64,000 nucleotides of DNA from Candidatus Dojkabacteria bacterium (lineage in GTDB: Bacteria > Patescibacteriota > Dojkabacteria > SC72), in assembly GCA_050950145.1 (NCBI GenBank), contig JBMNHB010000001.1, forward strand, positions 684,820 through 748,819. Reading direction: 5' to 3'. A program made the translations under genes and the position numbers. This document shows positions 39,263-56,339 of this stretch, piece by piece. Position 1 is the first letter of the stretch. The number at the start of each line of letters is the position of its first letter. The notes beneath the pieces were generated by a model. It was given only the letters and a program-made list of their open reading frames with translations. It searched no databases and had not been told where the DNA came from.

Positions 39263-41758
39263 CTAAAACATTGGAGGAAAACCTGGCATAGGTTGTTGTG
39301 GAGGTTCCTCTTCCTTTTCCAACTGTGCTCTAGTCCTAATATCATCAGCTACAACATTAACATCTCTACCATATTTCCTTCTAGACATCTCTTTAATAAT
39401 ACCGGAAACTTCCTTGTTAATCGGAATATCAAAACCTGAATCTGGATAATTTGGTCCATATGCACTATCTAATGAGAATGGTGCTGGATACGATCCATTA
39501 TTTAGTAACTTCGTATACCAATGTCCCATTGACTGATTAACAATATCTCCTGCAGAAACATACCCCTCAAAAGGTGTTTCCAAAAACTGAGCATCCTCGG
39601 GACTACATCTTGTGATAAAGAGTGAACCAACATTACCAAATACAGCATTCTTAATATCCTCTGGTAACTGTCCAATATATTGATGTGCAAGAGTTAAGTT
39701 TAATCTGTACTTCCTAGCCTCAGAGAGAATTGAATTAAACTCCTCCGTTGCAAAATTCTGAAACTCATCAGCATAAAAGAAGAAGTCCTTCCTCTGCTCT
39801 TCCGGAATATTTTCCCTACTTAAAGCTGCAGCAAGTAACTTCTGTACTACCAAAAGACCTAAGAAAGACATATTCTCATCCCCTATCAATCCCTTAGAAA
39901 GATTCACAATTAATATTTTCCCTTCATCCATAATCTGTCTAAAATCAAAAGATGATTGAGATTGACCAATAATATTTCTAATTGCTAAGTTTGTTGTAAA
40001 CTTATCAAACTTAGAGATGAAATATGTAAGTGACTCCGCCTTTGTCTTTTTATCTGTCTTAGCAACCTGATCTGTCCAATATCTTAAAACTAATTCATCT
40101 TTAACTAATGGTAACCAGTAGTCCATTACCCACTCCTCATCTTGTAGGATTCTAACAACCTCTATCAATGTAGAATCTGGCTTAGACATAGCTGTTAACA
40201 TAGAGTTTCTTACTGCCTGTTGGAAAGCTGGACCAGCATAACCTTGATTGTTTGGGTCAAACAATCTTATGAGTAGTGCTATAAAGCTATTAACAATTTG
40301 GTGCTTATGCTGTTCATTGTAATATTCCATGATATTTAAACCAAACGGCCTGTCAAAATCACCAGCATTAAAGTAGATAACATCTTCTGCTCTCTCGGGT
40401 GGAATTCTCTCCAAAAGCATCTCTGCAGCAGAACCATGAGGGTCTATAAAGCAACAACCATCACCATTATATATATCCTGAATCATCATCCTTACCATCA
40501 ACCAAGATTTACCAGTACCTGTTTGTCCGAGTATATATGAGTGCCTTCTCCTATCATCCCTCTGAAAACATATCATCTTCCTTTTACCTCTGAAATAGTT
40601 ATTACCCACCCAAATAGTATCTCTAGAGTTAATATCCGAACTAATCTCGTTACCTGCAGGTAATTCCTTAGATAGAAGCCATACAATATTAGGTGTCGTT
40701 ATCTCCTTATTTGGGAAATGATACAACCCTGCTAACTCTTCAATATTTAAAATACTCTTCTCATTCTCTGGAGTTCTTCTATAGATGACATCATAAAGGA
40801 AACTCTTCTGCTCTCTATCCTTCATCTTTTTCTTTTTCAACTTGTTTATTCCAGGATTGTTATACTGATCAAAAGCAGCAAGAATATTTTCTAAATGCAT
40901 CTTCGCTATCTCCTTACTAGGAGCACTAGTAATAATTCTAATCTCAGCCATTAACCCAGGTTTAGAAATCTTTTTGGTTATTGCCTGAAGTTTCTCTTGA
41001 GGTACATTTATCTTTTTCTTTTCTGGATCTGAATTATTCTTTTCAACATTCTGAACAAAACTACTCCCACCCTTCTGCCAGGTATTATCTGTAGGTGCAA
41101 CAGCTAACTGAACAATTGCACCCTCATTCTCAGACATCTTACTCAATGTACTAAGGACATTTGCTAAAGGATCTCCAGTAAAACCTTCTGCTGTCCTGAT
41201 TGGAAGATAGGGATCTTCATCAAGGATAAGTCTTGCATATGCAATCTCTGTATTTGGTGCAAAGATATTGTATTCATCAACAACTGCAACATCTGCATCT
41301 TGGTATGAACCAAGTATTTGTTTTTCTACTAAGTCTGCAAACTTTCTTGGACAGTGTACAAAGAATCTAATCTCACCAGGTAGCCCTACCATTTCAAAAC
41401 TTACACTATTACTAACACTAAACTTCTCCCCTATCCCATCTGCCTTACCACCAATACCGTACAAGTTAGCAAACATCTGTTCTGCTGCCCCTATTTCAAC
41501 TTCATTCTCTCTAGGTACTCTTACCTCCATTAATATTCCATCTCCTGCTTTCTCATTCCTATCTTTCTTTTTAAGCCTCTTCTTTATGTAAAAGAAACCT
41601 AATACAGCAAGAGCTATTATTACAACAAAGAAAGATACCCAACCCCAAGGTACTTTAAAACTATCATACGAATTATCTGGATATCGCACAGTAGATTCCT
41701 TTTTAGGTTGTTCTATTGTTGGACCAAAAACTTGTGCATAAATATCTTTAGAATACAT
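39263..41758 (-). CDS. VirD4/TraG/TraD-family type IV coupling-protein-like ATPase
   Basis: N-terminal transmembrane segment (WVSFFVVIIALAVLGFFYI). Walker A YILGQTGTGKSWLM is followed by CCFIDPHGSAAE (compare DPKGE of the TraG/VirD4 family). Walker B FFFYADEFQNF. The length is 831 aa. Confidence 0.55.
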   Translation of the reverse strand: MYSKDIYAQVFGPTIEQPKKESTVRYPDNSYDSFKVPWGWVSFFVVIIALAVLGFFYIKKRLKKKDRNEKAGDGILMEVRVPRENEVEIGAAEQMFANLYGIGGKADGIGEKFSVSNSVSFEMVGLPGEIRFFVHCPRKFADLVEKQILGSYQDADVAVVDEYNIFAPNTEIAYARLILDEDPYLPIRTAEGFTGDPLANVLSTLSKMSENEGAIVQLAVAPTDNTWQKGGSSFVQNVEKNNSDPEKKKINVPQEKLQAITKKISKPGLMAEIRIITSAPSKEIAKMHLENILAAFDQYNNPGINKLKKKKMKDREQKSFLYDVIYRRTPENEKSILNIEELAGLYHFPNKEITTPNIVWLLSKELPAGNEISSDINSRDTIWVGNNYFRGKRKMICFQRDDRRRHSYILGQTGTGKSWLMVRMMIQDIYNGDGCCFIDPHGSAAEMLLERIPPERAEDVIYFNAGDFDRPFGLNIMEYYNEQHKHQIVNSFIALLIRLFDPNNQGYAGPAFQQAVRNSMLTAMSKPDSTLIEVVRILQDEEWVMDYWLPLVKDELVLRYWTDQVAKTDKKTKAESLTYFISKFDKFTTNLAIRNIIGQSQSSFDFRQIMDEGKILIVNLSKGLIGDENMSFLGLLVVQKLLAAALSRENIPEEQRKDFFFYADEFQNFATEEFNSILSEARKYRLNLTLAHQYIGQLPEDIKNAVFGNVGSLFITRCSPEDAQFLETPFEGYVSAGDIVNQSMGHWYTKLLNNGSYPAPFSLDSAYGPNYPDSGFDIPINKEVSGIIKEMSRRKYGRDVNVVADDIRTRAQLEKEEEPPQQPMPGFPPMF

Positions 41759-42616: not shown

Positions 42617-44953
42617 CTACAAAGCAATCTTCCATACCGTATTACCATCAAGTACATACATATTCTCTTCCTTATGATCTACAACAAAATCTTTTACATT
42701 CTTAAATTCATTCTCATCTCCTCCTCTGTATTCATACTGTTTTAATAATAACAATTGATTTGGATGCCTAATATCTGCACCACCCTCTTGTGGTTTTTCA
42801 AATCTGAGAAACCTTTTCCCTTCAGAATCAAACATATACAGACCACTATCCATACTATCAGCATATGTATATCCTTTTGTAATCTTACCAACCCCTCCTG
42901 AGAGACCAATTATTCCAAATTCAGAAAGAACCTGTTTCTGTTCAACTGAGCTCCATATATATCTAAGAATTCCTTCTTCTCCTTTAGTAAATACATACAC
43001 ACTAAAATCTCCATGTATATCCGTAGCATTCTCAAATGCTGGATTTTCAACATATTTATTCAACATGGAATACCTATCACCATACACAGCTGTAGATCTT
43101 AATATAGCTTTTTGGTCAGGAGAAAGAAGATATACATTATCATTCGCTGTTAGGACAATCATATCTACAACATCTATACCTGTAATATCTCTAGCTAAAA
43201 GTCCTGGAAGTGTAATGAAACTTCCTAAAGAATCATCTTCATTCCTCTGTGCTTTTACAACTCCCGTGTCTTTGTCATATACAAAAACTCCTCTTTCTCC
43301 AACAGCAACATACATGGGAGCTTTTAGTATTTTCTGTTCATCTTTAATAACTTCTACCGCAGGTGTTTCAGCTAAAGGTATTCTATAAACAGCTTTTTTA
43401 CCTTTATCTGTAATCAGAAGATACTCTACATTATTCTTATCTATATACTTATCTATATCTACAAGCTCTGCACCCTCTCCAATTGCAGAAAGAGATGGAC
43501 TTAAATAGCTAGAAAGATTTCCTAGTTCAGAAGAAAATCCTACCTTTTTAAAGAGCTGATCTCCAAGTTTGTTATACCTATCTTTCAACTCCTTTGCTTT
43601 AGTTGTATCTTTCTCCTTAAGACCTTCGGGAATCTCCTTTAGTAAATTCCCAACATCAAAATATGCTGTCTCAGCACCACTCTTGTCTCCATCAATATTT
43701 TGTTCTATCTTATCCAATAACTGCTGAATCTGTGTAAATTTCTGATTGACTTCCTTACTAAGTTCATTTGCTTTCTTTGTTTTTATAGAGAAGTTAACAC
43801 CAAGAATTATTAAAACAACTATTGTAACAATCCCCAAAACTATCTTGAATCTCCTTCCCCTTAGATCTCTAACCTTGTAATCATCTACTCTCATACCAAC
43901 CGTTTGTACTGCTTGTCTTGGTTTCCTAAGACTAATTTCTGAATATTTAGACATGATTTTCTTAAACCATCTCTTCCTAGATAGAAGTGAAGAAATCTTG
44001 TTCCATATTGCAACAAACACTGATTTGATATATTCCCATATCTTCTGAAACACACCTTTTATTTTGCTCCATACAATCTTAATTTTCTCTCTTGTTCCCT
44101 CTGATGGTTTTATCTTCTCCAAAAACCCTTCAATTCTACTTTTTGCTCCCTTAAATGTACCTCCAATCTTCTCAGTTGTATCTTTCACATTTATCTTCCC
44201 TATACTAATCTTCTTAAGATCCAACACTAACTTCTTCTTGTCTTCTGGGGGCACAAATGTAGGAGCAATTGTTGGAGTACTTTCAGTTATTTCTTCTGTA
44301 TGTTCTTTTACTAGCGGTTTCTTTGCGTTGATAAAAGACATTACAGCATTATTCCCAGTCATATTCACCCCTATTCTTGTAACTTCTCTTTCTAATTTTT
44401 CCTCCTCAGATGCAACTGTGATATCTGCTAAATTCTCTGAGAAAATTCCCTCTGTTGAGAGAAGTAATGCCTCATTCTTCTCTAATACAACACCTGCCGT
44501 ATTTGCTTCCTTCTTTTTCATGATATCAGCAATGTCTACTACTTTTTCTCCCTTTACAACATATATTTCTCCATTACCTATTGAACCAATATACAAACCT
44601 TCTTTTTTGACCAAACATACCAACATCGTAAGATCTATCTTATTCCCAGCTACATCCTTATCACTCTGAATTAAACTTCTTAACTTGTTAAAGCCATCTG
44701 CTAAGGCAGACTTCATTGAGTCATTTGTCGTTTTCTCATGAGAATACAGATATCCATCGGTAATGCTATCTAAAACAAATTTAGAAAGCCTATTTAATGG
44801 AAGTTCTTTTTCTGAAGACATTTTCAGAATTATATAGATATCTCCTTCTTTACTAGATTTTTGGTCTCTTGTAGAGAAAAGATTTACATGAGAGACTACA
44901 AAAGATTTTGGGTCTTTTTCATTTGATATATATTGTTGGGCAGATATCTCCAT
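42617..44953 (-). CDS. Large hypothetical membrane protein (778 aa). Its N-terminal domain resembles a PP2C/SpoIIE fold.
   Basis: DLTMLVCLVKKEGLYIGSIGNGEIYVVKGEKVVDI resembles the PP2C core strand pattern. A central transmembrane segment (IVLGIVTIVVLIILGVNF) is present and the C-terminal half is large. Confidence 0.45.
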   Translation of the reverse strand: MEISAQQYISNEKDPKSFVVSHVNLFSTRDQKSSKEGDIYIILKMSSEKELPLNRLSKFVLDSITDGYLYSHEKTTNDSMKSALADGFNKLRSLIQSDKDVAGNKIDLTMLVCLVKKEGLYIGSIGNGEIYVVKGEKVVDIADIMKKKEANTAGVVLEKNEALLLSTEGIFSENLADITVASEEEKLEREVTRIGVNMTGNNAVMSFINAKKPLVKEHTEEITESTPTIAPTFVPPEDKKKLVLDLKKISIGKINVKDTTEKIGGTFKGAKSRIEGFLEKIKPSEGTREKIKIVWSKIKGVFQKIWEYIKSVFVAIWNKISSLLSRKRWFKKIMSKYSEISLRKPRQAVQTVGMRVDDYKVRDLRGRRFKIVLGIVTIVVLIILGVNFSIKTKKANELSKEVNQKFTQIQQLLDKIEQNIDGDKSGAETAYFDVGNLLKEIPEGLKEKDTTKAKELKDRYNKLGDQLFKKVGFSSELGNLSSYLSPSLSAIGEGAELVDIDKYIDKNNVEYLLITDKGKKAVYRIPLAETPAVEVIKDEQKILKAPMYVAVGERGVFVYDKDTGVVKAQRNEDDSLGSFITLPGLLARDITGIDVVDMIVLTANDNVYLLSPDQKAILRSTAVYGDRYSMLNKYVENPAFENATDIHGDFSVYVFTKGEEGILRYIWSSVEQKQVLSEFGIIGLSGGVGKITKGYTYADSMDSGLYMFDSEGKRFLRFEKPQEGGADIRHPNQLLLLKQYEYRGGDENEFKNVKDFVVDHKEENMYVLDGNTVWKIAL

Positions 44954-44957: not shown

Positions 44958-45227
44958 TTAAGAAAGAATTAAAAACAACATTGCTAACAAGGTAAGTAAG
45001 AATGTTGCTATTAAATACAATACAACAATACTTTTTATTGTCTTGTTCCCCTCCATTATAAAAGTATCTGTTAATATTCTAACTCTAAGGTAGAGAATGA
45101 GAGCTGAGAAAAGATTTCCTATCAGAAGCAAAATTACAGGAATCTTAAGAAGAGGAATTAAGTTAAATTCAATAGTTCCTATTTGTATAGTGTATAGATT
45201 GTTTAATATTTCATTAATCTCTTCCAT
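44958..45227 (-). CDS. Small two-transmembrane membrane protein (89 aa)
   Basis: Hydrophobic ORF in operon position between neighbouring genes. Confidence 0.35.
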   Translation of the reverse strand: MEEINEILNNLYTIQIGTIEFNLIPLLKIPVILLLIGNLFSALILYLRVRILTDTFIMEGNKTIKSIVVLYLIATFLLTLLAMLFLILS

Positions 45228-45883: not shown

Positions 45884-47740
45884 TTACTTCTTTTCTATGT
45901 TAATGTGAATAAATCCATTCTGAGGAATACGGAAATATCCAGGAGCTCGCAGACCAAAAGCTGTTTTAAAATCACTTCCTATCATTTCTACAACACCTCT
46001 ATTAGTGTTAAATGATACCTTGTCAGTAAAGCCACTATTGTATGTAATTACACTATAAATCTGAGTGACTGGATTGGGGACGATATTTCTTAGCTCCTGA
46101 TGAGAATATGGGTTTGCATATTTATATCTTTCATCACCAGAATAACACTCCTTTATATCTATCGCGATAACCCTAGGATCAGAATCTACTTCTTTCAGAC
46201 GAAGATAACCATTTAATATATCTGACATTTCTTCATTATTAAGCCATGGGGTTGTATGCCCACAATCATTGCCAGATATTGTGTATCCATATCTAAACCA
46301 CTGTCTGTAAAACCAGTAAGATCCCACCCTTGTACTCTTAGCTTCATACATCTGTGCAATTGATGAAGAACCATCTATAGTATCCCATCCTATATCATAC
46401 GAATATCCACCATGAACAGCAGCATATGAAGTCTCAAAGACAGTCCCTCTCCTAGTTAATACTTGGTCTTTAGTTGCAGCCATTGCAGCTTGCCAATTAG
46501 GTTTGATGACAATATTAGGATTAAAAGCTTGATCACATTCATCACTGTTTATATATGTAGTTCCATAGTTCGTTCTCCATATCGCATATGTTCTAGCAGA
46601 TACTGCTTGTGCTTTTAATGCTTCCATTGCAAAATTATCTGGCATTTCTGCTATCCTAGGCATGTATTCAGTTTCAAAGTCATAAGTTTGGAAACTCGGA
46701 TTACAACAAACACTACACGGTTTACATGCTTGACTACTTCTATCACAGAAACGAACAGTAATTTGCCCCATTGTTGCGTTACCTATAGCACTTCCAGAAT
46801 AATATGCAGATAAAATTTGTTGATAATTTTGACCAAGCAAAGCCCTTACATCTGCACCGTACTGACTTAAACCTCTTCTCCATGTATATGCACCAAAAGA
46901 AAAAACTGCAAATGAACCTGGAGGAGCATTCTGTCGGAAATAATCAGGAGTAGAAGCAACATCCTTTCCATTTGTAGGTATCATGGAAGTATCTACAACT
47001 GTCCCACCAGATCTTGCATAGAGTAGAAATTGCTGTAATTGAGAAATCTCCTTTGTTAATCCTCCTATCTGCACTGTAAGATTTTTCTTTTGAGCATTTT
47101 GCTTGTTCAACTCCGCCTGTAACTTAGCTTTCTCATCTGCTAATAATGCATACGATTTATCCAAATCCTCCTTCTGTTTATCTAAATCTTCCCTCTCTTT
47201 ATCTAATGCTGCTTTGGCTTCAGCTAAACTACTAAATTCTCCATTTATCTTTTCTACCTCTCCCCTAAGTACAGATACCGTATTCCTCTTAACATAAAAT
47301 CCTTTAATCAGACCATCCCAATCTGAAAGGAAAAAATTAATAACACTACTCCTACTCTCTATATACAATTTACCTGATACAACATCTAAAATCTCTTTTG
47401 TTTTTTCTAACTGTTCCTGCTTATCTTTAATCCCCTTAACCTTCTCATCCATCTTCTCTTGGTTCTCATCTATACTTGCCTGCAACTTATTAACCTCTGC
47501 TGTCATCAATGCTATCTTTTCACTCAATGACTTACTACTACCTTTTATCTCTGCAATTTTCTTCTCAATTGTTCCTAAAATCCCTTGTTTCTCTGCTATC
47601 TGTTCTGTTTTCTCATTAATCTGTTTCTCTAAATCAGATATAGATTGGGAATATACTGGAAGTTTTACTAAAAAGAGAAGGATTAGGAATGTAATCAAAA
47701 AAGAAATTAAACCTACTTTGATTCGGGGCACTTTCATCAT
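45884..47740 (-). CDS. Secreted coiled-coil protein with a C-terminal SpoIID/LytB-like domain
   Basis: Signal or transmembrane segment. There are about 200 aa of coiled coil (EKQINEKTEQIAEKQ...). The C-terminus has TWRRGLSQYGADVRAL (compare the G-x-G-M-SQ-x-GA motif of SpoIID/LytB). Confidence 0.55.
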   Translation of the reverse strand: MMKVPRIKVGLISFLITFLILLFLVKLPVYSQSISDLEKQINEKTEQIAEKQGILGTIEKKIAEIKGSSKSLSEKIALMTAEVNKLQASIDENQEKMDEKVKGIKDKQEQLEKTKEILDVVSGKLYIESRSSVINFFLSDWDGLIKGFYVKRNTVSVLRGEVEKINGEFSSLAEAKAALDKEREDLDKQKEDLDKSYALLADEKAKLQAELNKQNAQKKNLTVQIGGLTKEISQLQQFLLYARSGGTVVDTSMIPTNGKDVASTPDYFRQNAPPGSFAVFSFGAYTWRRGLSQYGADVRALLGQNYQQILSAYYSGSAIGNATMGQITVRFCDRSSQACKPCSVCCNPSFQTYDFETEYMPRIAEMPDNFAMEALKAQAVSARTYAIWRTNYGTTYINSDECDQAFNPNIVIKPNWQAAMAATKDQVLTRRGTVFETSYAAVHGGYSYDIGWDTIDGSSSIAQMYEAKSTRVGSYWFYRQWFRYGYTISGNDCGHTTPWLNNEEMSDILNGYLRLKEVDSDPRVIAIDIKECYSGDERYKYANPYSHQELRNIVPNPVTQIYSVITYNSGFTDKVSFNTNRGVVEMIGSDFKTAFGLRAPGYFRIPQNGFIHINIEKK

Positions 47741-47757
47741 TGTCCTGTATTATACCA

Positions 47758-48153
47758 TTAACCAGTAATGATTTTTTGTAAGAAGAGAATAATGTATGGA
47801 AGGAAGATGATAAGGCCAGTTATGACTGATACTAAAGCACTTACAAGTACTGCTCCAGCACTTACATCTTTTGCATATTTCACATTTATTTTAAAATCTT
47901 GTGAGACAGTATCACAGAGAGCCTCGATTGCGCTATTGATTGTCTCAGATATTAAGACCATTGAAATAACCAAACTTATCGCTATCCATTCGAAATGACT
48001 AATCTTAAAGAATACCCCAGCTAGTATAACTAAAGCTGTAATTACAAGCTCTATCCTAAAATTTCTTTCATTTTTAAAAATCAATTTTATGCCATTCCTA
48101 GCATATCCCTGACTCTTAAAAAAATCTTCAGTTTTAAAAGATTCGTTCTTCAT
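47758..48153 (-). CDS. dgkA: Diacylglycerol / undecaprenol kinase (DgkA family)
   Basis: Three transmembrane helices and the signature ETINSAIEALCD. Confidence 0.8.
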   Translation of the reverse strand: MKNESFKTEDFFKSQGYARNGIKLIFKNERNFRIELVITALVILAGVFFKISHFEWIAISLVISMVLISETINSAIEALCDTVSQDFKINVKYAKDVSAGAVLVSALVSVITGLIIFLPYIILFLQKIITG

Positions 48154-48155
48154 AT

Positions 48156-48482
48156 TTAAGCAACAGCATCAAGAATAGCTTTTAGTATAAGGCCAACAAG
48201 GATAGTAAAAATCAAACCTATGATAGCCCATGTTAATGTCCCTTGAGCTCTTTTAATCTTATCTGGATCTCCTGCAGATATCATCCACATATATCCACCA
48301 TATACAACAAAAATAAATGCTAGTAAACCAGCAATGGGAAGAAGTTTACTAGTTACTGTATCTACAAGTCTTTGAATCGTCGCCCCATCTAATCTAGGAG
48401 GAGAAGATTGAGCATATATATAGGAACCTGAAAGGAATGAAGCTATGACTAAAGGAATAGATTTGTATAAATCTTTTATCAT
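48156..48482 (-). CDS. VirB2/TrbC-like type IV secretion pilin paralogue 1
   Basis: Signal peptide (...SYIYA|QSS), then two hydrophobic helices flanking the conserved block GGYMWMISAGDPDKIKRAQGTLTWAIIGL. Confidence 0.55.
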   Translation of the reverse strand: MIKDLYKSIPLVIASFLSGSYIYAQSSPPRLDGATIQRLVDTVTSKLLPIAGLLAFIFVVYGGYMWMISAGDPDKIKRAQGTLTWAIIGLIFTILVGLILKAILDAVA

Positions 48483-48489
48483 TAATCGA

Positions 48490-48762
48490 TTAAAGAAACT
48501 TATCTAATACAAATTTTACAATAGTTGGAGATAAAAAGACAATAATTAATCCAATGAACGCAAATATTAAGCCTCTTGTAGCTTCTTTAACCTTTTCATC
48601 ATCTCCTTTTGAAAACATATACTTGAAGCCTGAAATAACAACAGATATCACAACCAGCAGAACAGAAAAAGAGATAGCCAAATCTAACAGATTCCTAACA
48701 AAATCAGTTAAATCAGTATAAGCAGTTAAGTTTAAACTATTTACAAAAGGTTTTTCAAACAT
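48490..48762 (-). CDS. VirB2/TrbC-like pilin paralogue 2
   Basis: Conserved block SGFKYMFSKGDDEKVKEATRGLIFAFIGL between two hydrophobic segments. Confidence 0.5.
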   Translation of the reverse strand: MFEKPFVNSLNLTAYTDLTDFVRNLLDLAISFSVLLVVISVVISGFKYMFSKGDDEKVKEATRGLIFAFIGLIIVFLSPTIVKFVLDKFL

Positions 48763-48792
48763 ACTAAGAATCTTTTACTCCTACTTATCTAG

Positions 48793-49155
48793 TTAGACCT
48801 TAGGAACTACAGTTGTTGGATCAGTTCCTAATATCTTATTCCCTACAAATCTGACAAGTATCACAGCTACAAAACAAACAACAAGACCAATAATCGCCCA
48901 TGTTAAAGATTTAGTTGCTGTTTGAATTTTGTTCTCATCTCCATTAGCTGTCATATATGAATAGCCTGCAAAAATCAAAATACCAACACAAACAATCACA
49001 GCAAACCCAATTGCAAAATTTAACACTGTTTGTACTATACCTGGAATTGTTTTACCCCCAGTTGGATCATCAGGAAGCCAACCTGAAGCTTCTTGTGCAT
49101 AAACAGAGGAAGCTGCTAGATACACAGATATTGGAAACAACTTAGAAATTTTCAT
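48793..49155 (-). CDS. VirB2/TrbC-like pilin paralogue 3
   Basis: Signal peptide (...SVYA|QEA). Conserved block AGYSYMTANGDENKIQTATKSLTWAIIGL. Confidence 0.55.
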   Translation of the reverse strand: MKISKLFPISVYLAASSVYAQEASGWLPDDPTGGKTIPGIVQTVLNFAIGFAVIVCVGILIFAGYSYMTANGDENKIQTATKSLTWAIIGLVVCFVAVILVRFVGNKILGTDPTTVVPKV

Positions 49156-49229
49156 ATATAAATAAATATTTAAATAAAATATATATTAAGTATGTTAATT
49201 ATATATTAACCATATATAAAAAACAATAG

Positions 49230-49556
49230 TTAATCAAGCCCTAAAACCTCCAAAACAAATATTATTAGTATTCTAGCAATAAAAACTATTACCATCCCCA
49301 TAATTGCAGCTACTATACCTTTTTGACCTTTCTGAATTTTATCGGGTTCTCCCACAGAGGTTATCAAAGTATATCCAGAATAAATTATTATAGCCACAGC
49401 CACAACAACAGAAAAGATTACTATTCCATCTAAAATGGGTTTAACTGTCTTCTCCATCACACTATCCATGTTATAGTCACCACCTCCAAGTTTTCCTATC
49501 CCAAATTGAAAATACTTTGACAAGTCCCTGTATCTTTCAGTATCAACTCCTTCCAT
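49230..49556 (-). CDS. VirB2/TrbC-like pilin paralogue 4
   Basis: Conserved block SGYTLITSVGEPDKIQKGQKGIVAAIMGM between two hydrophobic segments. Confidence 0.5.
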   Translation of the reverse strand: MEGVDTERYRDLSKYFQFGIGKLGGGDYNMDSVMEKTVKPILDGIVIFSVVVAVAIIIYSGYTLITSVGEPDKIQKGQKGIVAAIMGMVIVFIARILIIFVLEVLGLD

Positions 49557-49578
49557 ATTTTTATATTATTAAATAATA

Positions 49579-49938
49579 TTACCTTTTAAAAATCTCACCA
49601 TCTCCAACATCACCTATTGTCCCACTTATTATGAGGAGAATAACAATAGACAAAACTACAACTAAAAGGCCAATAATTGCATTTGTAATTAAGGATCTTG
49701 CCTCTTGTAATTTCTCCGGATTTCCTTGACTCGAAATTAGTAAATAACCACCGTAGGACAATAAAATAAATGCCGCTATTACAGCAACTGGTATAGAGAT
49801 TTTTACTATCTTACCAACTAAAACATCAATATCCGTATCAGGCTGAACCTCTAGCTCACTATCTAAGGTGTCACCTAAACTACTAGCATACACTTTTTGC
49901 ACCAAAAAGTTATTTATTCTTAAAAAAATATCCATCAT
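49579..49938 (-). CDS. VirB2/TrbC-like pilin paralogue 5
   Basis: Signal-like N-terminus (...KVYA|SSL). Conserved block GGYLLISSQGNPEKLQEARSLITNAIIGL. Confidence 0.55.
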   Translation of the reverse strand: MMDIFLRINNFLVQKVYASSLGDTLDSELEVQPDTDIDVLVGKIVKISIPVAVIAAFILLSYGGYLLISSQGNPEKLQEARSLITNAIIGLLVVVLSIVILLIISGTIGDVGDGEIFKR

Positions 49939-49950
49939 CTAGCCATTATA

Positions 49951-52900
49951 CTATAAATCAGCATACTCACAAATAGAGTTAAAATCACAGAAACGACAAC
50001 TAAACCCTGGAGCTGCTCTAAAATCAGCTTTTTTAATACTTTCCAAGGATGAAAGAAGCTTTTCTTTAGCCTCTTCTCTTCTCTCTTGAGAGACATTCAC
50101 ATCAACAACGCTACCTGTTTCAACAAATACATACTTAGCTCCAACAACCTTTAAACCAAATTTTTCTTCAGTAACAAGAGCATACAGTGGTAATTGCAAA
50201 TCCTTCTTTATCTCACTAGCATCTTTCTCTGATCCTGTTTTGTAATCAACAATACAGACTTCCTTTACACCATCTTTCTCTCCTACCAAATCTATCCTAT
50301 CTATCTTCCCACTAAACACAACATCACCAAGATGCACACCGAAAGACTCCTCTAATCTAAGAGGATTTTCATCTGAAGAGTAAATCTTTTCAAAATATGT
50401 TTCCATTATTCCTTCCCCTTCTTTCTTTCTAATCTCCTCCTGTTTCTTACTCTCATATCCACTCTTTATCCAATTTTTCTCGTACAAATCTAAAAGATCT
50501 TTCTTGTCAGGAGCATCTATCATCCCACCAAGACCCTCTTTTGACCTCTGAAGTAAAGTGTAGAAATCCTTAAGCGTATTATGTACTGTAGTACCAAAAG
50601 CAGTTGCAGCATTACCTTTCGTAGGAATCCTTAGTACATATGCATACTCATACTTTCTAGGACAGCTCTCATATACATTAAGTTGTGAATAACTAAATCT
50701 TTTTACAATATTCATAATTTCTGTTTGGGGAATAATTGACTCACCTACCCCCTGTGCTAAAGTTAAATGAATACCATCATCAGTAAAATCATCAACCTCT
50801 GCTCTTTGCTTAAAATCGTCATCAACATCCCGATCAAGAACTTCATAAAGGAAAATACTCGGTTTCTTCTTTCTTTTAGCATCTCCATAGAAATTAGATG
50901 CTGTAAGATAAAGTTTCTCTTTTGCACGAGTTGCACCAACATAGAAAAGCCTCCTCTCCTCTTGAAGATTTGCCTCTTTCTCTGTTAATTCTTCTGCTAC
51001 TATCTCTTTTACCAACTCTTCCGGTATTGGAATAGCATCTCTCCTTGACCTAGTTGGGAATCTATCTGCAACAAGATTAACTAAGAATACAACAGGAAAT
51101 TCTAATCCTTTTGCAGAGTGTACTGTCATAATATTCACAGCATTCAACTCATCCATATCTGTCAGATCCACTAAAGGAGAATCTCCAATCTGAATACTAT
51201 AGTTAAGATAATCCACATACTCATATATATTAGAATCTGGATTCTCTTTCTCGTAACTTTTTACTAAATCAAAGAATTTATTAATATTCGCAACAGCAAA
51301 AAGACTCTCTGCACTATCCTCTTCCAAAAAAGTATTAATATATCCACTATTCATCACAAAGTCATACAGTATCTCAACTAAACTTCTACTATCTTTTATC
51401 TTTTTCATACTAGCATCTAAAAGCATCAGAAGTGTACTAATACCCGCTATTGCTTGAGGTGAAAGTATCTTATCCATAATCTCACTATCTACATGCTTAA
51501 AGTCTTCCTCTTTGTAATCCTCCCCTCCTACCTTTATATTCCACTCACCTTCTAAAATCTCCAAAACTGTTACTTTCTCCTCTCTTGCTAACTGTACTAA
51601 GTCCATATATTCCCTAGGTGAAAAATTCCATACAGGCATGGTTAGAAGTTTGTACATTGAAACTTCATCTGTGTAGTCTACTAAAACCCTAAGAAATGCA
51701 ATAATATCCTTAATTTCATCTCTAAAATACAGCCCCCTTGCACCACCAAGTTTGTATCTAATACCCTTGTTTCTTAATTCTTGAACAAAAATATCTGCAT
51801 TTGCATTAGCTCTTACCAAGATTGCAATATCAGAAAACTTGTACTTAGCTTCCTTACCTGGATCCTGACTATCAAGAAATGTTGACTGCCCCTTCTCATC
51901 ATATGTCTGACTATCCTTATCCTCACTCTGTTTTACTAACTCCCCATACCCTGTTAGTTTCATAATCTCCTCAGCAACTCTTTCAGCCTCACCGGTTTCC
52001 CTTTGAGAAACCATAAGGTTAAGAGCATCCTCATCTTCATCAAAAATCCCTCTTGCAATCAACCTTTTATCTATCTTCTCTGTCACCTCTAACCTATACG
52101 GATCATTATGCCTAATTAGTGTATGTGCAGCATCTAAAATCTCCTGTTTTGAACGATAGTTTTCAGTAAGAACAACCTCATGTGCTTTTGGATATTTCTC
52201 CTTAAATTGAAGAATATTTGAGATTGCTGCTCCCCTAAATTTGTAAATTGCCTGATCATCATCACCAACTACTGTTAAAAGTGGTCCATCTTTCTCACCT
52301 TTTAATATATTAACCAATACATTCTGTGTATAGTTAGTATCCTGAAATTCATCTACAAGAATATATTTAAACTTCTTTCTGTATTTTTCTAAAACATTTT
52401 TCTTCTCTCTAAAAAGTTTAATTGAAAGAAGTATTAAATCTCCAAAGTCCACTCTAGATTTCTCAATCTTAAGTTCTGAATACTTTTTGTATGCTTGAGC
52501 TAATTCATTTGTTTTTACATATTCCTCTTTCTCTGCTGAAGTACCCTTAGGTAAAGACTCTGCATATTTAATATATTCCTCAGGAGAGACATCTTCGTCC
52601 TGTAATCTTCCTACATGTTTAAGGAAATCATTAAGGAATTTTGTAGGATTTCCTCTTGGTAGAAGAGTCTTAAATGACATATCATACAGGTATCTTCTTA
52701 GAAAAATGTATGCCTGTGCAGTGCTAAGTAGTGAATAGTTACCATCTAAACCAATATTGTAACCATCTTCTCGTAATATATGATCACAAAAAGAATGAAA
52801 TGTAGAGATATATGGTTCATCATATCCATACTCCATTCTTTCATCTATTCTTGTTTGCATCTCTTGAGCAGCTTTTTCTGTAAATGTTAAAGCCAATATC

Positions 52901-53070
52901 TCAGATGGTTTAGCCCAACCACTATTGATAATATGTATGATTCTCTCTGTGATAACTGAGGTTTTACCTGTACCTGCACCAGCAATAATGAGTAGATCCC
53001 CTTTGTTAAACTCTACAGCTTCTTTCTGTTTTTCATTTAGATTAATCTGCCCCATTATTTTGCAGAACAA
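49951..53070 (-). CDS. UvrD/PcrA-like superfamily-1 helicase fused to a C-terminal PD-(D/E)xK (RecB/Cas4-like) nuclease domain (AddA-like)
   Basis: Walker A IIAGAGTGKTSV and UvrD-type motifs (VDEFQDTN, VGDDDQAIY). The C-terminus has IDRIDLVGEKDGVKEVCIVDYKTG and a terminal cysteine cluster CRFCDFNSIC. Confidence 0.85.
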   Translation of the reverse strand: MFCKIMGQINLNEKQKEAVEFNKGDLLIIAGAGTGKTSVITERIIHIINSGWAKPSEILALTFTEKAAQEMQTRIDERMEYGYDEPYISTFHSFCDHILREDGYNIGLDGNYSLLSTAQAYIFLRRYLYDMSFKTLLPRGNPTKFLNDFLKHVGRLQDEDVSPEEYIKYAESLPKGTSAEKEEYVKTNELAQAYKKYSELKIEKSRVDFGDLILLSIKLFREKKNVLEKYRKKFKYILVDEFQDTNYTQNVLVNILKGEKDGPLLTVVGDDDQAIYKFRGAAISNILQFKEKYPKAHEVVLTENYRSKQEILDAAHTLIRHNDPYRLEVTEKIDKRLIARGIFDEDEDALNLMVSQRETGEAERVAEEIMKLTGYGELVKQSEDKDSQTYDEKGQSTFLDSQDPGKEAKYKFSDIAILVRANANADIFVQELRNKGIRYKLGGARGLYFRDEIKDIIAFLRVLVDYTDEVSMYKLLTMPVWNFSPREYMDLVQLAREEKVTVLEILEGEWNIKVGGEDYKEEDFKHVDSEIMDKILSPQAIAGISTLLMLLDASMKKIKDSRSLVEILYDFVMNSGYINTFLEEDSAESLFAVANINKFFDLVKSYEKENPDSNIYEYVDYLNYSIQIGDSPLVDLTDMDELNAVNIMTVHSAKGLEFPVVFLVNLVADRFPTRSRRDAIPIPEELVKEIVAEELTEKEANLQEERRLFYVGATRAKEKLYLTASNFYGDAKRKKKPSIFLYEVLDRDVDDDFKQRAEVDDFTDDGIHLTLAQGVGESIIPQTEIMNIVKRFSYSQLNVYESCPRKYEYAYVLRIPTKGNAATAFGTTVHNTLKDFYTLLQRSKEGLGGMIDAPDKKDLLDLYEKNWIKSGYESKKQEEIRKKEGEGIMETYFEKIYSSDENPLRLEESFGVHLGDVVFSGKIDRIDLVGEKDGVKEVCIVDYKTGSEKDASEIKKDLQLPLYALVTEEKFGLKVVGAKYVFVETGSVVDVNVSQERREEAKEKLLSSLESIKKADFRAAPGFSCRFCDFNSICEYADL

Positions 53071-54085: not shown

Positions 54086-54194
54086 GTGTATATTTTAACA
54101 TATATCACCTATACAAACCTGGTCTGTACATTTATCCTTACCACCAGAGAACAAACCAATCGTTTTTAAGGTTTTTTAATCTTGCTATGGGTAC

Positions 54195-54215
54195 TTGACA
54201 CGAATGTGATATAAT
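54195..54215 (+). promoter_or_regulatory. Putative promoter with an extended -10 element (TGATATAAT) driving the downstream structured RNA
   Basis: TTGACA at 54195-54200 and TGaTATAAT at 54207-54215. The -35 spacing of 9 nt is non-canonical, so the extended -10 is the main evidence. Confidence 0.35.
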
Positions 54216-54221
54216 CGAATG

Positions 54222-54338
54222 TAGGCTGGTTGAGAGATGGGGAAGCTCTCCTGGTTATCTTGTATAACCTGCGATGTTGATTCATCTTAGGGATATAATC
54301 CTGATTACGGTTCAAGTCCGACAGCCTACACAACGAAA
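54222..54338 (+). ncRNA. Unassigned structured small RNA of about 115-125 nt. It has an 8-bp stem between its 5' and 3' ends and a tRNA-like T-arm.
   Basis: 5' GTAGGCTG pairs with 3' CAGCCTAC. The T-arm-like element is CGG-TTCAAGT-CCG. Internal hairpins are GAGAG..CTCTC, GGTTAT..ATAACC and GATG..CATC. It does not fold into a canonical cloverleaf. Confidence 0.3.
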
Positions 54339-54364
54339 CACAATAGAGACAACCCTATAGCGTG

Positions 54365-54394
54365 TTGACTTTTCCGAGCAAACAAAGGTATAAT
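54365..54394 (+). promoter_or_regulatory. Sigma70-type promoter (TTGACT, 18-nt spacer, TATAAT) for the small ORF at 54453
   Basis: TTGACT at 54365-54370 and TATAAT at 54389-54394. A strong Shine-Dalgarno AAGGAG lies 8 nt before the ATG. Confidence 0.5.
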
Positions 54395-54452
54395 GCATTG
54401 TTCTTGAACAGATTAGAAAAATCCTAGTGCATATAAAAAAGGAGAATGTAAT

Positions 54453-54668
54453 ATGGCAGGTCCAAAGGATAAATACTCACGAAAAGACTCAAAAGGCAGT
54501 GAAGTTTCTGGTGGTCCAGTACGCAGACATATTCACGAAAGAACATACGACGACGGTTCAAAGCACACCACCGAATCTGTAACTCGAGAATCCAGCAGTT
54601 GGAGAATGTCTTGGGATACAGACAAAGATGGTAAAGATTCCAATTTTCACGCGAACAAGAACAAGTAA
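54453..54668 (+). CDS. Small, highly hydrophilic (probably disordered) protein of 71 aa. It may be stress-associated.
   Basis: It has its own promoter and a strong ribosome-binding site. The composition is rich in K/D/S/G/T/E/R. Confidence 0.5.
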   Translation: MAGPKDKYSRKDSKGSEVSGGPVRRHIHERTYDDGSKHTTESVTRESSSWRMSWDTDKDGKDSNFHANKNK

Positions 54669-54696
54669 AACAAAACTAGGATTTTCTAATCACTCA

Positions 54697-54752
54697 AAGA
54701 TGCGAAGGAGATTACCCTCTTTCTGAGAAAAGTAACCTCCTTCGCTATCATC
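54697..54752 (+). terminator. Long imperfect hairpin (GCGAAGGAGATTAC ... GTAACCTCCTTCGC) downstream of the small ORF. It may act as a terminator.
   Basis: About 14-bp stem with one mismatch. There is no clear U-tract. Confidence 0.3.
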
Positions 54753-54861
54753 CCTTGGTATCGTTAGATTATTGTTATCGAAGACTTTTACAATTTGCTG
54801 TATTATCAAGTTTTCTGCAAACATTTGGATAACATTGTTTTTATATAATGGGATGTTAGTA

Positions 54862-54898
54862 TTGACACTTCGTCATAATTATGTCACAATTATGACAT
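54862..54898 (+). promoter_or_regulatory. Toxin-antitoxin promoter and operator. A -35 TTGACA overlaps a near-palindrome GTCATAATTATGTCACAATTATGAC.
   Basis: The 25-bp sequence is its own reverse complement except at 3 positions. It lies immediately upstream of the Phd/YefM gene. Confidence 0.5.
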
Positions 54899-54920
54899 AC
54901 CTAACTTAAGTAAAAAACAT

Positions 54921-55175
54921 ATGGAAATTAAACCAATATCATATCTAAGAAATACACAAGAATTAACAAAGCTATGTGATAAAGGTGAAGCAGTATACCT
55001 AACTAAGAATGGACATAAAGCCTTAACTATTCTTAGTTCTGAGAAATATGACAAGATATTAGCAGAGTTAGATTTTCATAAAAAGATGATGGAAGCTAGT
55101 GAAGATGTAATAGCAGGACGAGTCTATAACCTTGAAGATGTAATTTCTGAACTTAATAAAAAATATGGCTTCTAA
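54921..55175 (+). CDS. Type II antitoxin of the Phd/YefM family
   Basis: 84 aa. N-terminal ISYLRNTQELTKLCDKGEAVYLTKNGHKALTILS fits the Phd/YefM fold. It overlaps the downstream toxin gene by 11 nt. Confidence 0.7.
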   Translation: MEIKPISYLRNTQELTKLCDKGEAVYLTKNGHKALTILSSEKYDKILAELDFHKKMMEASEDVIAGRVYNLEDVISELNKKYGF

Positions 55176-55473
55176 ATATTTAGTCACACTAACAGAAAAA
55201 GCATTTATTGATCTAGACAGTATTTATTCATACATACTAGAAACCTCTCAATCCAAAAGAACTAGAGATATGGTAAAAATGGAAATAGAGAAGACATTAA
55301 GATCTTTAACTATATTTCCTAAACGAAACCCACTATTATTAAAAAATCCTCACTTTAGAAAAGCAAAAGTATATTCATACTCAATTGTATATAAGGTAAT
55401 CAAGAAAGAAAAAACTGTCATAGTCTGGAGAATCCTTTCTGATTATACAGATTGGGATAATAGCATAGCATAA
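55165..55473 (+). CDS. Type II toxin of the RelE/ParE superfamily
   Basis: 102 aa. ...YSYSIVYKVIKKEKTVIVWRILS fits the RelE/ParE beta-sheet core. It is the second gene of a two-gene toxin-antitoxin operon. Confidence 0.65.
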   Translation: MASKYLVTLTEKAFIDLDSIYSYILETSQSKRTRDMVKMEIEKTLRSLTIFPKRNPLLLKNPHFRKAKVYSYSIVYKVIKKEKTVIVWRILSDYTDWDNSIA

Positions 55474-55507
55474 AAACCTAATATAAAGTATAATTACCAA
55501 GTATTAT

Positions 55508-55599
<92 letters not shown>

Positions 55600-55613
55600 G
55601 TTAGAGACTTTCG

Positions 55614-55895
55614 TTACTCTTTCTCCTCTATCTCAATAGCACAACCATCTACCAATGATTTACTAATTTTTTGATAAGCACTGTTTAAGATCCGACTAAA
55701 AGTCGGTTGTGATACACCCAATTGTTGAGCAGCAGAAATCTGATCAAGTCCATCAATATGATAAAGCTTTAATACTTCTATCTCCTCTGCTAACAATTCA
55801 ACTGTCTCCAATTCTCGTAGTGGTACCCCTTGAGGTTTGAAATAGTAGGTTCTTAGACGAGAACGTAAATTGCGACGATGTCTAGGTCTAGCCAT
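55614..55895 (-). CDS. DUF134-family predicted DNA-binding protein (sigma-70 region-4-like HTH)
   Basis: MARPRHRRNLRSRLRTYYFKPQG... and the HTH LDQISAAQQLGVSQPTFSRIL. Confidence 0.7.
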   Translation of the reverse strand: MARPRHRRNLRSRLRTYYFKPQGVPLRELETVELLAEEIEVLKLYHIDGLDQISAAQQLGVSQPTFSRILNSAYQKISKSLVDGCAIEIEEKE

Positions 55896-55900
55896 AACGA

Positions 55901-56128
55901 TTAAGAGTTATTATCTATTTGACGATTATTAAATCTTCTTCCACCACCTCTTCTTCTACCAATACGTAACCTTAAACAATTTAGACGATTCCGTAAACCA
56001 GTACCAAGATTTCCTCGAACTGATAAAGAATCTTTACTACCATTATCTGATGATTTCTGACAATCTCCTCGTCCTAAACCTGTTTTTGGACCCTCACCTC
56101 GTGGTCCAGTTTTATCAAAATTAGGCAT
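55901..56128 (-). CDS. Small Gly/Arg-rich protein, DUF5320-like, the usual partner of DUF134
   Basis: MPNFDKTGPRGEGPKTGLGRGDC follows the MP-x-F/GDGTGP-x-G-x-GP-x-TGRG-x-G-x-C pattern. Confidence 0.5.
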   Translation of the reverse strand: MPNFDKTGPRGEGPKTGLGRGDCQKSSDNGSKDSLSVRGNLGTGLRNRLNCLRLRIGRRRGGGRRFNNRQIDNNS

Positions 56129-56339
56129 ATTAACCTCCTTTCTTATTTAATTATGAATATGTATTCATATTAACACAGGTAAAAGGCACTGTCAAGAACT
56201 AGAGAATAAACAAAAATTGAAAAATAACTACTCCAAACAACAATCTACAGCATTTTTAACTACATCCCCTATCTTACTCCAAAAGTCACTCTTCTTTTCT
56301 TTCTTTATCTCTTTTTTCTTTTTTACGACCTTATTCATA

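Follow-up and report, generated by a model that had tools for sequence, protein, structure and literature searches.

A class-wide tandem array of five VirB2-like T4SS pilin paralogues in Candidatus Dojkabacteria

Five consecutive small genes in a Candidatus Dojkabacteria (WS6, CPR) MAG encode proteins whose membership of the VirB2-like T4SS pilin family (PF18895) was confirmed at the level of sequence profiles. The array is found class-wide in Dojkabacteria, where it forms a positionally orthologous, anciently diverged and stable set under purifying selection. We consider it probable (roughly 0.6) that the five products are anciently diverged, non-redundant VirB2-like subunits that would be assembled by a T4SS into a heteromeric pilus-like structure.

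The array occupies positions 48156-49938 on the minus strand of the window, the 64-kb stretch of DNA that was analyzed. A first-pass annotation of this DNA had described five small ORFs here, and their coordinates and sizes (90-120 aa) were reproduced. The first array gene, P5 (49579..49938, 119 aa), encodes a VirB2-like two-helix protein with a weak, short leader. It is followed by P4 (49230..49556, 108 aa), whose VirB2-like product is leaderless with an acidic N-tail, and by P3 (48793..49155, 120 aa), whose product carries a canonical Sec signal peptide (..SVYA/QE, the slash marking the predicted site) and a C-terminal tail. P2 (48490..48762, 90 aa) encodes a VirB2-like, leaderless protein with a short acidic N-tail, and the last gene, P1 (48156..48482, 108 aa), a protein with a canonical Sec signal peptide (..YIYA/QS). 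The intergenic spacing within the array is 7-73 nt, no terminator-like sites were found between its genes, and its GC content shows no anomaly. A sigma-70-like promoter candidate (49945..49972, minus strand; TTGTGA-16-TATAAT, 10 of 12) was the best match in an 8.5-kb scan and lies just upstream of P5, inside the 3' end of the preceding helicase gene. This candidate is weak evidence, because the total number of promoter-like sites was lower than the shuffled expectation. None of the other ORFs of the 64-kb window matched a pilin HMM. The window also carries group I introns in its 23S rRNA gene, a hallmark of CPR.

The five proteins were searched against the two Pfam models that the first-pass annotation had proposed for checking. 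All five matched T4SS_pilin (PF18895, gathering threshold of 26.6 bits): P1, P2, and P3 scored well over the cut-off at 42.8, 45.9, and 47.8 bits, P5 exactly at it (26.6 bits), and P4 under it (23.7 bits), with E-values from P1 to P5 of 5.6e-11, 6e-12, 1.5e-12, 4.9e-5, and 6.3e-6. P3 was thus the best match of the five. The cut-off of TrbC/VirB2 (PF04956, 27.9 bits) was just exceeded by P2 (28.1 bits), while P3 (26.0 bits) and P1 (23.5 bits) scored under it and P4 and P5 gave no match. The best-scoring curated model was NF045849, "pilin-like conjugal transfer protein" (equivalog cut-off of 40 bits), which P3 matched with 47.3 bits. P2 (35.3), P1 (33.2), P5 (29.3), and P4 (22.4) scored under this cut-off, and the alignments of all five proteins covered 59-72 of the 80 model positions. 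In the NCBI annotation, which places proteins MGI6484695-700 in this locus, the product name is "pilin" for three of the five genes, including P1, and "hypothetical protein" for P5.

The scores of P4 and P5, below and at the Pfam cut-off, would also be expected if the array consisted of five unrelated small hydrophobic proteins that resemble pilins by chance or through their composition. The same could be said of the fold searches, which were non-diagnostic and recovered no solved pilin. Profile-profile comparison speaks against this. The ortholog-group profiles of P1-P5 were mutually homologous, with hhalign probabilities of 97.5-99.8% and E-values of 5e-12 to 9e-29. The P5 group profile matched the P1, P3, and P4 groups at 98.3-99.4%, and the P4 group profile matched the P1, P2, and P3 groups at 99.6-99.8%. 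Since the P4 and P5 profiles match the P1-P3 groups in this range (97.5-99.8%), all five can be placed in PF18895. Furthermore, nearly all of 1544 database homologues carry PF18895. The alignment contains the shared motif GGYxxxxSxGDPDKIxxAxxxLTWAIIGL with an identity to P1 of 23-33%, and residues G63, Y64, G71, K75, A79, A86, G89, and L90 (P3 numbering) vary little or not at all among 109 sequences. The reading as unrelated proteins is effectively refuted. The conserved G-[DNE]-x-x-K loop and the block around it, which the first-pass annotation had pointed out, are present in the alignment, and Pfam, NCBIfam, NCBI product names, and published arrays agree with its proposal of tandem VirB2/TrbC-like T4SS pilin paralogues in a CPR organism. 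A tblastn search of P3 against 72,556 plasmids gave no match, so there is no direct link to monoderm conjugative plasmids at that sensitivity.

Two strongly hydrophobic 19-mer segments were detected in each of the five proteins (maximum Kyte-Doolittle values of 2.0-3.3), in line with the two hydrophobic helices described earlier. For P3, AF2 predicts a hairpin of two helices (H36-68 and H73-109) with a helix pLDDT of 84-90, and residues of the loop and helix 2 are conserved across the 109 homologues. The N-termini were classified by a hydropathy heuristic. By these calls, the Sec-type signal peptides of P1 and P3 are convincing and end in YA/Q, a site of the (Y/F)A/(Q/E) form. In P1 the signal peptide precedes a conserved PP(R/K)L motif, and both are kept in the orthologs. 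The leader of P5 is short and weakly hydrophobic and ends in KVYA/SS, a motif conserved in 12 species. P2 and P4 have no leader and allow no upstream extension, and the leaderless N-terminus of P2 is likewise kept in its orthologs. The N-terminal type is paralogue-specific and conserved among orthologs, and the uniform signal peptide first assumed holds for two or three of the five proteins: for P1 and P3 and, as a weak short leader only, for P5, but not for P2 and P4. In a crude charge count of all five groups, the 13-aa loop had the highest K+R value (1.9-2.8), and the N-tails were acidic. This count predicts that in all five the N-terminus and the short C-terminus lie outside and the K/R-bearing G-(D/N/E)-x-x-K loop lies in the cytoplasm. 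An N-out/C-out arrangement with a cytoplasmic loop is the known membrane topology of VirB2 and TraA pilins.

We collected comparison loci by anchoring on the neighboring helicase gene. The array was located directly after the same helicase gene in 20 of 21 Dojkabacteria loci, the remaining locus (L029) ending inside the helicase. Among 12 complete five-gene arrays, every position best matched P5-P4-P3-P2-P1 in order in 10; in the two exceptions (L013 and L015), the second gene scored slightly higher against P3. Scores between genomes were 192-275 for the same position and 92-166 across positions, and this positional orthology spans species whose helicases are only ~57-60% identical. Arrays of six to eight genes occur in three loci (L019, L023, and L027), where P3 is the only type duplicated. 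In L010, the pilins were 49-63% identical to those of the window, compared with 76-83% for the housekeeping neighbors.

Variation within the species of the window, which occurs in anaerobic-digester or wastewater samples (for example JGI 3300049646 and 3300060679), was also analyzed. Our first comparison of strains was biased because its loci had been chosen for identical P3, and it was repeated with loci anchored on the gene for a 778-aa protein, three of which cover the array. Within this species, dS was 0-0.07 in the array and 0.16-0.7 in the flanks, and the array was the least-diverged segment. Such a pattern may come from a gene-specific sweep or from an assembly artefact. Identical exact pilin alleles were found on 40-324 contigs. 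P4 was the only position with two common alleles, the window allele being present on 40 contigs and the other on 139, and the dN/dS of the diverged P4 allele in L004 was 0.06. The array is under purifying selection.

These data bear on the proposal of the first-pass annotation that five divergent copies reflect antigenic or functional diversification. If the array were a cassette for antigenic or host-range variation, its genes would encode interchangeable major-pilin variants used for evading recognition or for binding different hosts, an idea also raised in a 2025 paper (PMC12102498). The tandem arrangement and low identity (23-33%) of the copies fit such a cassette, as do the variable copy number of the P3 type between species and the faster divergence of pilins than of housekeeping genes seen in L010. 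However, the five types remain positionally orthologous at the helicase distances given above, the N-terminal class is fixed for each position, and no DNA-level repeats or gene-conversion tracts were detected. The array is moreover the least variable segment within the species, with the low dN/dS at the diverged allele and the same exact alleles recurring on many contigs. Positional orthology, fixed N-termini, and low within-species divergence together favor five non-redundant subunits over antigenic variation, which we regard as unlikely. Of the earlier proposal, the functional part is the better supported, and purifying selection and the lack of conversion tracts speak against the antigenic part.

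The upstream neighbor of the array encodes a UvrD/PcrA-type helicase fused to a PD-(D/E)XK nuclease (49951..53070, minus strand; identified with Pfam). This gene adjoins an array in Dojkabacteria only (L010-L028 and L030, and none of L031-L089). We take it as a probable synteny anchor that is functionally unconnected with the pilins; a role as their DNA-processing partner is unlikely because the gene is widely conserved and has no adjacent array outside Dojkabacteria. Downstream, a gene for a SpoIID/LytB-domain protein (45884..47740, minus strand; PF08486 and TIGR02669) with an N-terminal membrane anchor and a coiled coil of ~230 aa follows the array in all Dojkabacteria loci that extend far enough. 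In L028 it adjoins the array, and in L030 a counterpart with 23% identity lies ~4 kb from the array on the downstream side. Its product is a candidate cell-wall-opening partner, possibly a VirB1 analogue. DAGK was considered as a functional partner in connection with a pilin-phospholipid idea and was rejected because outside the closest species it is not found after the array.

Farther downstream, 6.4 kb from the array and on the same strand, a gene at 39263..41758 (minus strand) encodes a VirD4-like coupling-protein homologue. Matches to DUF87, T4SS-DNA_transf, TrwB_AAD_bind, and NF045973 substantiate the VirD4-like ATPase noted at first pass, and the T4CP-type protein has an N-terminal TM segment. 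The gene is syntenic across Dojkabacteria and is separated from the array by, among others, the housekeeping gene smpB. The VirD4-like gene is flanked by an integrase-family gene (38205-39092) and tRNA genes. T4CP homologues are described as common in Patescibacteria, rarely located near virB4, and non-essential in Ca. Southlakia epibionticum (PMC12102498). The order helicase, pilins, SpoIID, bPH, DUF5657, 778-aa protein, SmpB, and T4CP is conserved across Dojkabacteria species. Because the array sits among housekeeping genes, its neighbors may reflect general synteny rather than function.

Genes for VirB4, VirB3, VirB6, and VirB8 were found neither in the 64-kb window nor in the reachable flanks, and no relaxase gene was found in the window. 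Domain and motif searches of the window thus gave the same outcome as the first-pass annotation, which had seen no VirB4, VirB6, or relaxase there and had suggested a partial, split, or repurposed system; T4SS machinery is indeed not adjacent to the array. Beyond the window ends, there are T4P genes on one side and genes for ClpB, RadA, and Rho on the other. A Walker A/DEAW motif scan of the retrieved loci identified a VirB4-type ATPase only in a locus from outside Dojkabacteria (L038). In Table S1 of the 2025 study, two Dojkabacteria genomes are VirB4-positive (PMC12102498), and its preprint version counts Dojkabacteria as one of the T4SS-bearing CPR phyla.

The T4CP-like gene 6.4 kb away, the integrase-family and tRNA genes beside it, and the lack of a nearby relaxase or VirB4 could be taken to mean that the pilins and the coupling protein are the remnant of a decaying integrated conjugative element with little current function. 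We consider this very improbable: none of the five ORFs is disrupted, purifying selection acts on them, the GC content is unremarkable, and the conserved order from helicase to T4CP across Dojkabacteria species indicates that the locus was not recently mobile.

A more substantial alternative is that the five proteins are membrane-embedded components or chaperones of a monoderm T4SS channel that remain in the cytoplasmic membrane, rather than filament subunits. In some Gram-negative systems, VirB2 is required for the transfer of substrates even where no pili are formed. The closest curated family, NF045849, is that of the Mollicutes ICE pilin-like protein; weak matches were also obtained to the conjugation membrane proteins pLS20_p028 and MMCAP2_0566, and two of the five proteins have no leader at all. 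In addition, Gram-positive T4SSs are described as generally lacking pili (PMC12102498, PMC12857230, and PMC10633639). On the other hand, five conserved paralogues are many for a channel accessory, and exposed tails that are acidic and variable suit proteins on the cell surface. At the interface between a cultivated Minisyncoccota parasite and its host, tubular structures "that may be T4SS pili" have been observed (bioRxiv 10.64898/2026.06.21.733656). None of these three points is decisive, and we hold the channel-component reading to be possible but not likely.

The explanation that we prefer, a heteromeric pilus-like structure, would operate as follows. Each of P1-P5 would form a two-helix membrane hairpin. 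Cleavable Sec signal peptides would direct P1 and P3 into the membrane, P5 would use its short conserved leader, with a (V/I)YA site as in P1 and P3, and P2 and P4 would be inserted leaderless. From the resulting membrane pool, the subunits would most likely be built into a larger structure by a T4SS of the monoderm (MPF-FATA-like) type that is driven by VirB4 and whose genes would lie elsewhere in the genome. This structure may be a heteromeric pilus-like tube or channel that crosses the cell wall and touches the host bacterium, and each of the five types would play its own structural part, with the P3 type as the likeliest major subunit. To our knowledge, a T4SS pilus has been demonstrated in no monoderm, and this counts against the explanation, as does the origin of the nearest curated model in Mollicutes ICEs, where no pilus is known. 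The explanation is further weakened by the missing VirB4, VirB3, VirB6, and VirB8 genes in the window and the reachable flanks, by the housekeeping context of the array, and by a topology drawn from a crude charge count. A more specific version is offered only tentatively. In it, a T4SS-derived tube would consist of a P3-type major subunit and four minor subunits, leader-bearing and leaderless types alternating, with the SpoIID enzyme as wall-opening partner, and the array would pass as a whole between co-existing strains, in a gene-specific sweep, since compatibility with the host bacterium would depend on it.

Tandem pilin arrays are already known in Patescibacteria, and the present locus adds nothing categorically new to them. 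VirB2 arrays of 2-11 genes, with a mean identity of 25%, were reported in 383 Patescibacteria assemblies and were defined there as low-identity pilin genes in tandem or with one non-pilin gene between them (Quinonero-Coronel et al. 2025, PMC12102498). The present array, five adjoining genes of a Dojkabacteria MAG that are 23-33% identical, falls within this definition; the published text of that study does not treat Dojkabacteria individually. In Ca. Southlakia epibionticum, a six-gene array lies in the T4SS cluster SEML1_0006-0019, and its pilin genes have been reported to be essential (Wang et al. 2023, PMC10633639; PMC12857230). The Dojkabacteria array shares with the Patescibacteria arrays, including those of S. 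epibionticum and TM7x, the protein family, the tandem divergent paralogues, the phylum, the monoderm host-dependent lifestyle, and the lack of a nearby relaxase. It differs from arrays of the S. epibionticum type in lying outside a virB4 cluster, with no T4SS core gene within 64 kb, and from published arrays in its position between helicase-nuclease and SpoIID-domain genes. Positional orthology, leader-bearing types that alternate with leaderless ones, and low within-species diversity are documented here and were not seen in the consulted passages of the cited papers.

More distant systems resemble the array in part. The Mbov_0395/MMCAP2_0565 family of Mollicutes ICEs (NF045849) also comes from wall-less or monoderm organisms, and P3 scores over its cut-off, but the Mollicutes protein is encoded by a single gene in a mobile element, whereas Dojkabacteria have five chromosomal paralogues in a housekeeping context. 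With the VirB2/TrbC/TraA pilins (Agrobacterium T-pilin, RP4 TrbC, and F TraA), the proteins share small size, two helices, a short charged loop, a leader in some members, and the predicted N-out/C-out topology. Unlike these diderm systems, there are five paralogues instead of one major pilin, the envelope is monoderm, and no evidence of cyclization or acetylation machinery was found. Tandem VirB2-family genes are also known from the Bartonella Trw system (trwL/virB2) and the virB2 array of Anaplasma, both host-interaction T4SSs in which the coupling protein is absent (Trw) or separate. Those arrays are lineage-specific amplifications that are read as antigenic or host-range devices, whereas the Dojkabacteria array is ancient, keeps its gene order, is under purifying selection, and does not show the combination of lineage-specific amplification with diversifying selection or high allelic turnover that marks the Trw type.

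A large part of the bacterial diversity still uncultivated consists of Patescibacteria, which live at the expense of other bacteria. A T4SS and pilin arrays have been reported to be essential in the one genetically tractable species. In Dojkabacteria, the order, paralogue identity, and N-terminal type of the pilins are kept class-wide and the array is nearly invariant among diverged strains of one species. This speaks for a heteromeric structure in which each subunit has a fixed role, and against an antigenic cassette. The Dojkabacteria array provides a clean comparative data set and a guide for structural and knock-down work on these pilins.

The five ORFs that the first-pass annotation had described as an array of VirB2/TrbC-like pilin paralogues are all present on the minus strand. 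They lie in the transcription order P5 (49579-49938, 119 aa), P4 (49230-49556, 108 aa), P3 (48793-49155, 120 aa), P2 (48490-48762, 90 aa), and P1 (48156-48482, 108 aa). Intergenic gaps within the array were 7-73 nt; the helicase-nuclease gene ends 12 nt before the start of P5, and P1 ends 2 nt from a diacylglycerol kinase (DAGK) gene. Alignment of the five proteins recovered the conserved block as GGY....S.GDPDKI..A...LTWAIIGL, with 23-33% identity to P1 across the paralogues, and the two hydrophobic helices noted earlier appeared as two strongly hydrophobic segments in every protein. No further ORF in the window was matched by HMMs built from P1-P5.

All five proteins gave matches to PF18895 (T4SS_pilin). 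P1-P3 scored 42.8-47.8 bits; P5, at 26.6 bits, fell right on the cut-off, and P4, at 23.7 bits, just under it. With PF04956 (TrbC/VirB2), also named in the first-pass annotation, P1-P3 were matched and P2 alone reached the cut-off. The best NCBIfam model was NF045849, "Mbov_0395 family pilin-like conjugal transfer protein" of Mollicutes ICE, for which P3 was above the cut-off. When one ortholog group per pilin type was assembled with sequences from 12 other species, all pairs of groups were homologous by hhalign (probability 97.5-99.8%), securing the membership of P4 and P5. Nearly all of the 1,544 homologues retrieved by database search carried a prior PF18895 annotation. Across 109 homologues, G71 and G89 (P3 numbering) were invariant, and G63, Y64, K75, A79, A86, and L90 were nearly so. 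Assignment of the array proteins to the T4SS-pilin family is supported by these sequence comparisons. Three of the five genes are already annotated as pilins: the NCBI product name is "pilin" for P1 and P2 and that of the Mbov_0395 family for P3, while P4 and P5 are "hypothetical protein."

The AlphaFold2 model of P3, built with the 109-homologue alignment, was a helical hairpin (helices 36-68 and 73-109); block-mean pLDDT was 84-90 where the helices were predicted best, and the N-terminus was disordered. No relevant PDB match was obtained by sequence profile search, and the predicted fold is compatible with VirB2 but not diagnostic. The signal peptide originally attributed to all five proteins held for only some of them. 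In both the window and the orthologs, the P3 and P1 types each start with a canonical Sec-like signal peptide that ends in (Y/F)A|Q/E, and the leader of the P5 type, ~18 aa long and closing with KVYA|S/Q, is conserved although weakly hydrophobic, whereas the P4 and P2 types lack a leader and begin with short polar or acidic tails. N-terminal types thus alternate from P5 to P1 (leader, none, signal peptide, none, signal peptide). The (mature) N-tail was acidic in all five groups (K+R 0.4-2.2 versus D+E 3.0-5.3), and K+R density was highest in the 13-aa inter-helix loop (1.9-2.8 K+R). By the positive-inside rule, this crude charge count predicts that the termini lie outside and the loop inside, as in VirB2 and TraA.

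A comparative scan of 80 loci from species-representative genomes was anchored on the adjacent helicase-nuclease gene. The pilin array lay directly 3' of the helicase in 20 of 21 Dojkabacteria loci (L029 ends within the helicase gene), among which helicase identity ranged from 81% down to ~39%. The remaining 59 loci, which belong to other Patescibacteria or to different phyla, had no array at this position. Arrays usually comprised five genes; two species had six and one had eight, the additional genes being P3-type duplicates, and arrays were shorter at contig ends or in the divergent locus L028. Of the 12 complete arrays of five genes, 10 gave best matches in the order P5-P4-P3-P2-P1 at every position; the exceptions were L013 and L015, whose second gene had a slightly better score with P3 than with P4. 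Between genomes, genes at the same position scored 192-275, clearly above both cross-position scores (92-166) and the within-genome paralogue score (132). The order helicase, array, SpoIID, bPH, 778-aa protein, SmpB, T4CP (VirD4-like coupling-protein homologue) was conserved, with DAGK beside the array only in the closest species. Wherever a Dojkabacteria locus extended far enough, the SpoIID gene was present downstream of the array, directly after it in L028 and ~4 kb downstream, with 23% identity, in L030. The latter, the most divergent Dojkabacteria locus, carries six much longer pilin-like ORFs after the helicase (L030 positions 13245-17149; up to ~330 aa in the stop-to-stop frame) with weak pilin-HMM matches (E 1e-16 to 6e-4), which may be an expanded array variant.

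Variation within the species was then compared between the array and its neighbours. Exact pilin alleles were found in 40-324 contigs, against only 1-2 for the strain's exact SmpB, EF-P, flavodoxin, and FtsB alleles. Six same-species contigs were 99-100% identical from ~50,400 to 47,600 (to 45,100 in two), with flanks at 78-96%, and dS was 0-0.07 in pilin genes versus 0.16-0.71 in flanking genes. The sole diverged allele was P4 in locus L004 (dS 0.38, dN 0.024, dN/dS 0.06). These six loci had been selected for an identical P3, and the comparison was repeated with the 778-aa-protein gene as anchor; in this unbiased but small sample (three loci covering the array), pilins were 98.5-100% and neighbours 85-100% identical. 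Mixed-strain assembly artefacts are possible, yet independent assemblies share the breakpoint. The block at 47600-50400 (to 45100 in some strains), with 98.5-100% nucleotide identity against 78-96% for flanking genes, was seen in L001-L006, L092, L093, and L096. From this pattern of identity, dS, and dN/dS, the array is under purifying selection and appears to be common to diverged strains through recombination; barring a mixed-strain assembly artefact, the pattern resembles a sweep of the array, either gene-specific or spread by recombination. DNA-level repeats within the array were confined to 30 nt encoding the conserved helix-2 motif, so no gene-conversion tracts were found there. The five divergent copies had been taken to suggest antigenic or functional diversification; the antigenic reading is disfavoured.

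The region 54100-56300, flanked by the genes for the AP endonuclease and a 6-TM protein, is a strain-variable islet, parts of which do not align with the other strains. It contains genes for a ParE-family toxin (55165-55473, plus strand), tRNA-Ser (55508-55599), and a DUF134/HTH protein (55614-55895, minus strand).

Downstream of the array on the same strand are, in this order, genes for DAGK, a SpoIID/LytB protein, a bPH_2 membrane protein, DUF5657, the 778-aa protein, SmpB, a 111-aa protein, and the T4CP homologue (39263-41758), the VirD4-like ATPase previously noted nearby. The reported absence of VirB4, VirB6, and relaxase from the 64-kb window was borne out; these, VirB3, and VirB8 were not found in the window or in ~8 kb beyond either end. 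The SpoIID/LytB protein (45884-47740, minus strand), which also has a membrane anchor and a coiled coil of ~230 aa, may be a VirB1 analogue, a partner that opens the cell wall. The single-pass membrane protein of 778 aa (42617-44953, minus strand) has no Pfam or NCBIfam match; its gene is preceded by that of the DUF5657 protein (44958-45227, minus strand), and across Dojkabacteria the two genes stay in synteny with the array while evolving fast (31-52% identity between species).

Gene content of the window (GC ~34%) is mostly housekeeping. A type IV pilus (not T4SS) cluster (59795-63451, plus strand, running beyond the window end) encodes an N_methyl pilin, a PilB-like ATPase, a PilC-like platform protein, and a second N_methyl protein, with a prepilin peptidase further along in locus L007; this cluster is distinct from the T4SS-type pilins, although only 10 kb away. 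A tRNA-Ile with the anticodon TAT (UAU), unusual for bacteria, was predicted by ARAGORN at 39142-39218 (minus strand); its neighbours are an integrase-family (XerC/D-like) gene (38205-39092) on one side and the T4CP-like gene on the other. The complete rRNA operon (12989-18921; 16S, tRNA-Ile, tRNA-Ala, 23S, 5S) includes a 3,753-nt 23S gene (13228-16980, minus strand) with two group I introns (14282-14510 and 14588-14833; Rfam RF00028), a typical CPR feature. A giant surface protein of 1,716 aa, probably an adhesin, is encoded at 4246-9396 (plus strand); Big_12, cadherin-like, and CarboxypepD_reg domains accompany its five repeat regions of the Mycoplasma-type DUF285. Two minus-strand genes encode a DNA ligase of the ATP-dependent, archaeal/eukaryotic type (22543-24366), which comprises N, M, and C domains, and a small stand-alone HNH endonuclease (26448-26726) adjoining the DNA polymerase I gene.

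In Patescibacteria, VirB2-like pilins have been reported from 1,948 assemblies that contain VirB4, and in 1,135 of these they lie near virB4; the same study describes 441 arrays of 2-11 pilin genes and suggests adaptation to different hosts (Quinonero-Coronel et al. 2025, PMC12102498). Those arrays are likewise tandem divergent genes, with a mean identity of 25% compared with 23-33% to P1 here. Table S1 of that study contains two VirB4-positive Dojkabacteria genomes, and its preprint version places Dojkabacteria among the CPR phyla with an identified T4SS. T4CP homologues are abundant in Patescibacteria, rarely near virB4, and non-essential in S. epibionticum (PMC12102498), so the proximity of the VirD4-like gene argues only weakly for a functional link. 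Pilin subunits of the S. epibionticum T4SS cluster are essential (Wang et al. 2023, PMC10633639). A 2025 review describes Patescibacteria T4SSs as the only Gram-positive-type ones with VirB2-like pilins (PMC12857230), and tubular structures "that may be T4SS pili" are described in a 2026 preprint from the contact zone between a cultivated parasite and its host (bioRxiv 10.64898/2026.06.21.733656). The locus therefore belongs to a known type of array, and this literature does not single out the class Dojkabacteria; what is new here is the class-level comparative genomics and the population data on the array. Functional diversification is the part of the original proposal that stands, as the data fit best with five fixed, non-redundant subunits.
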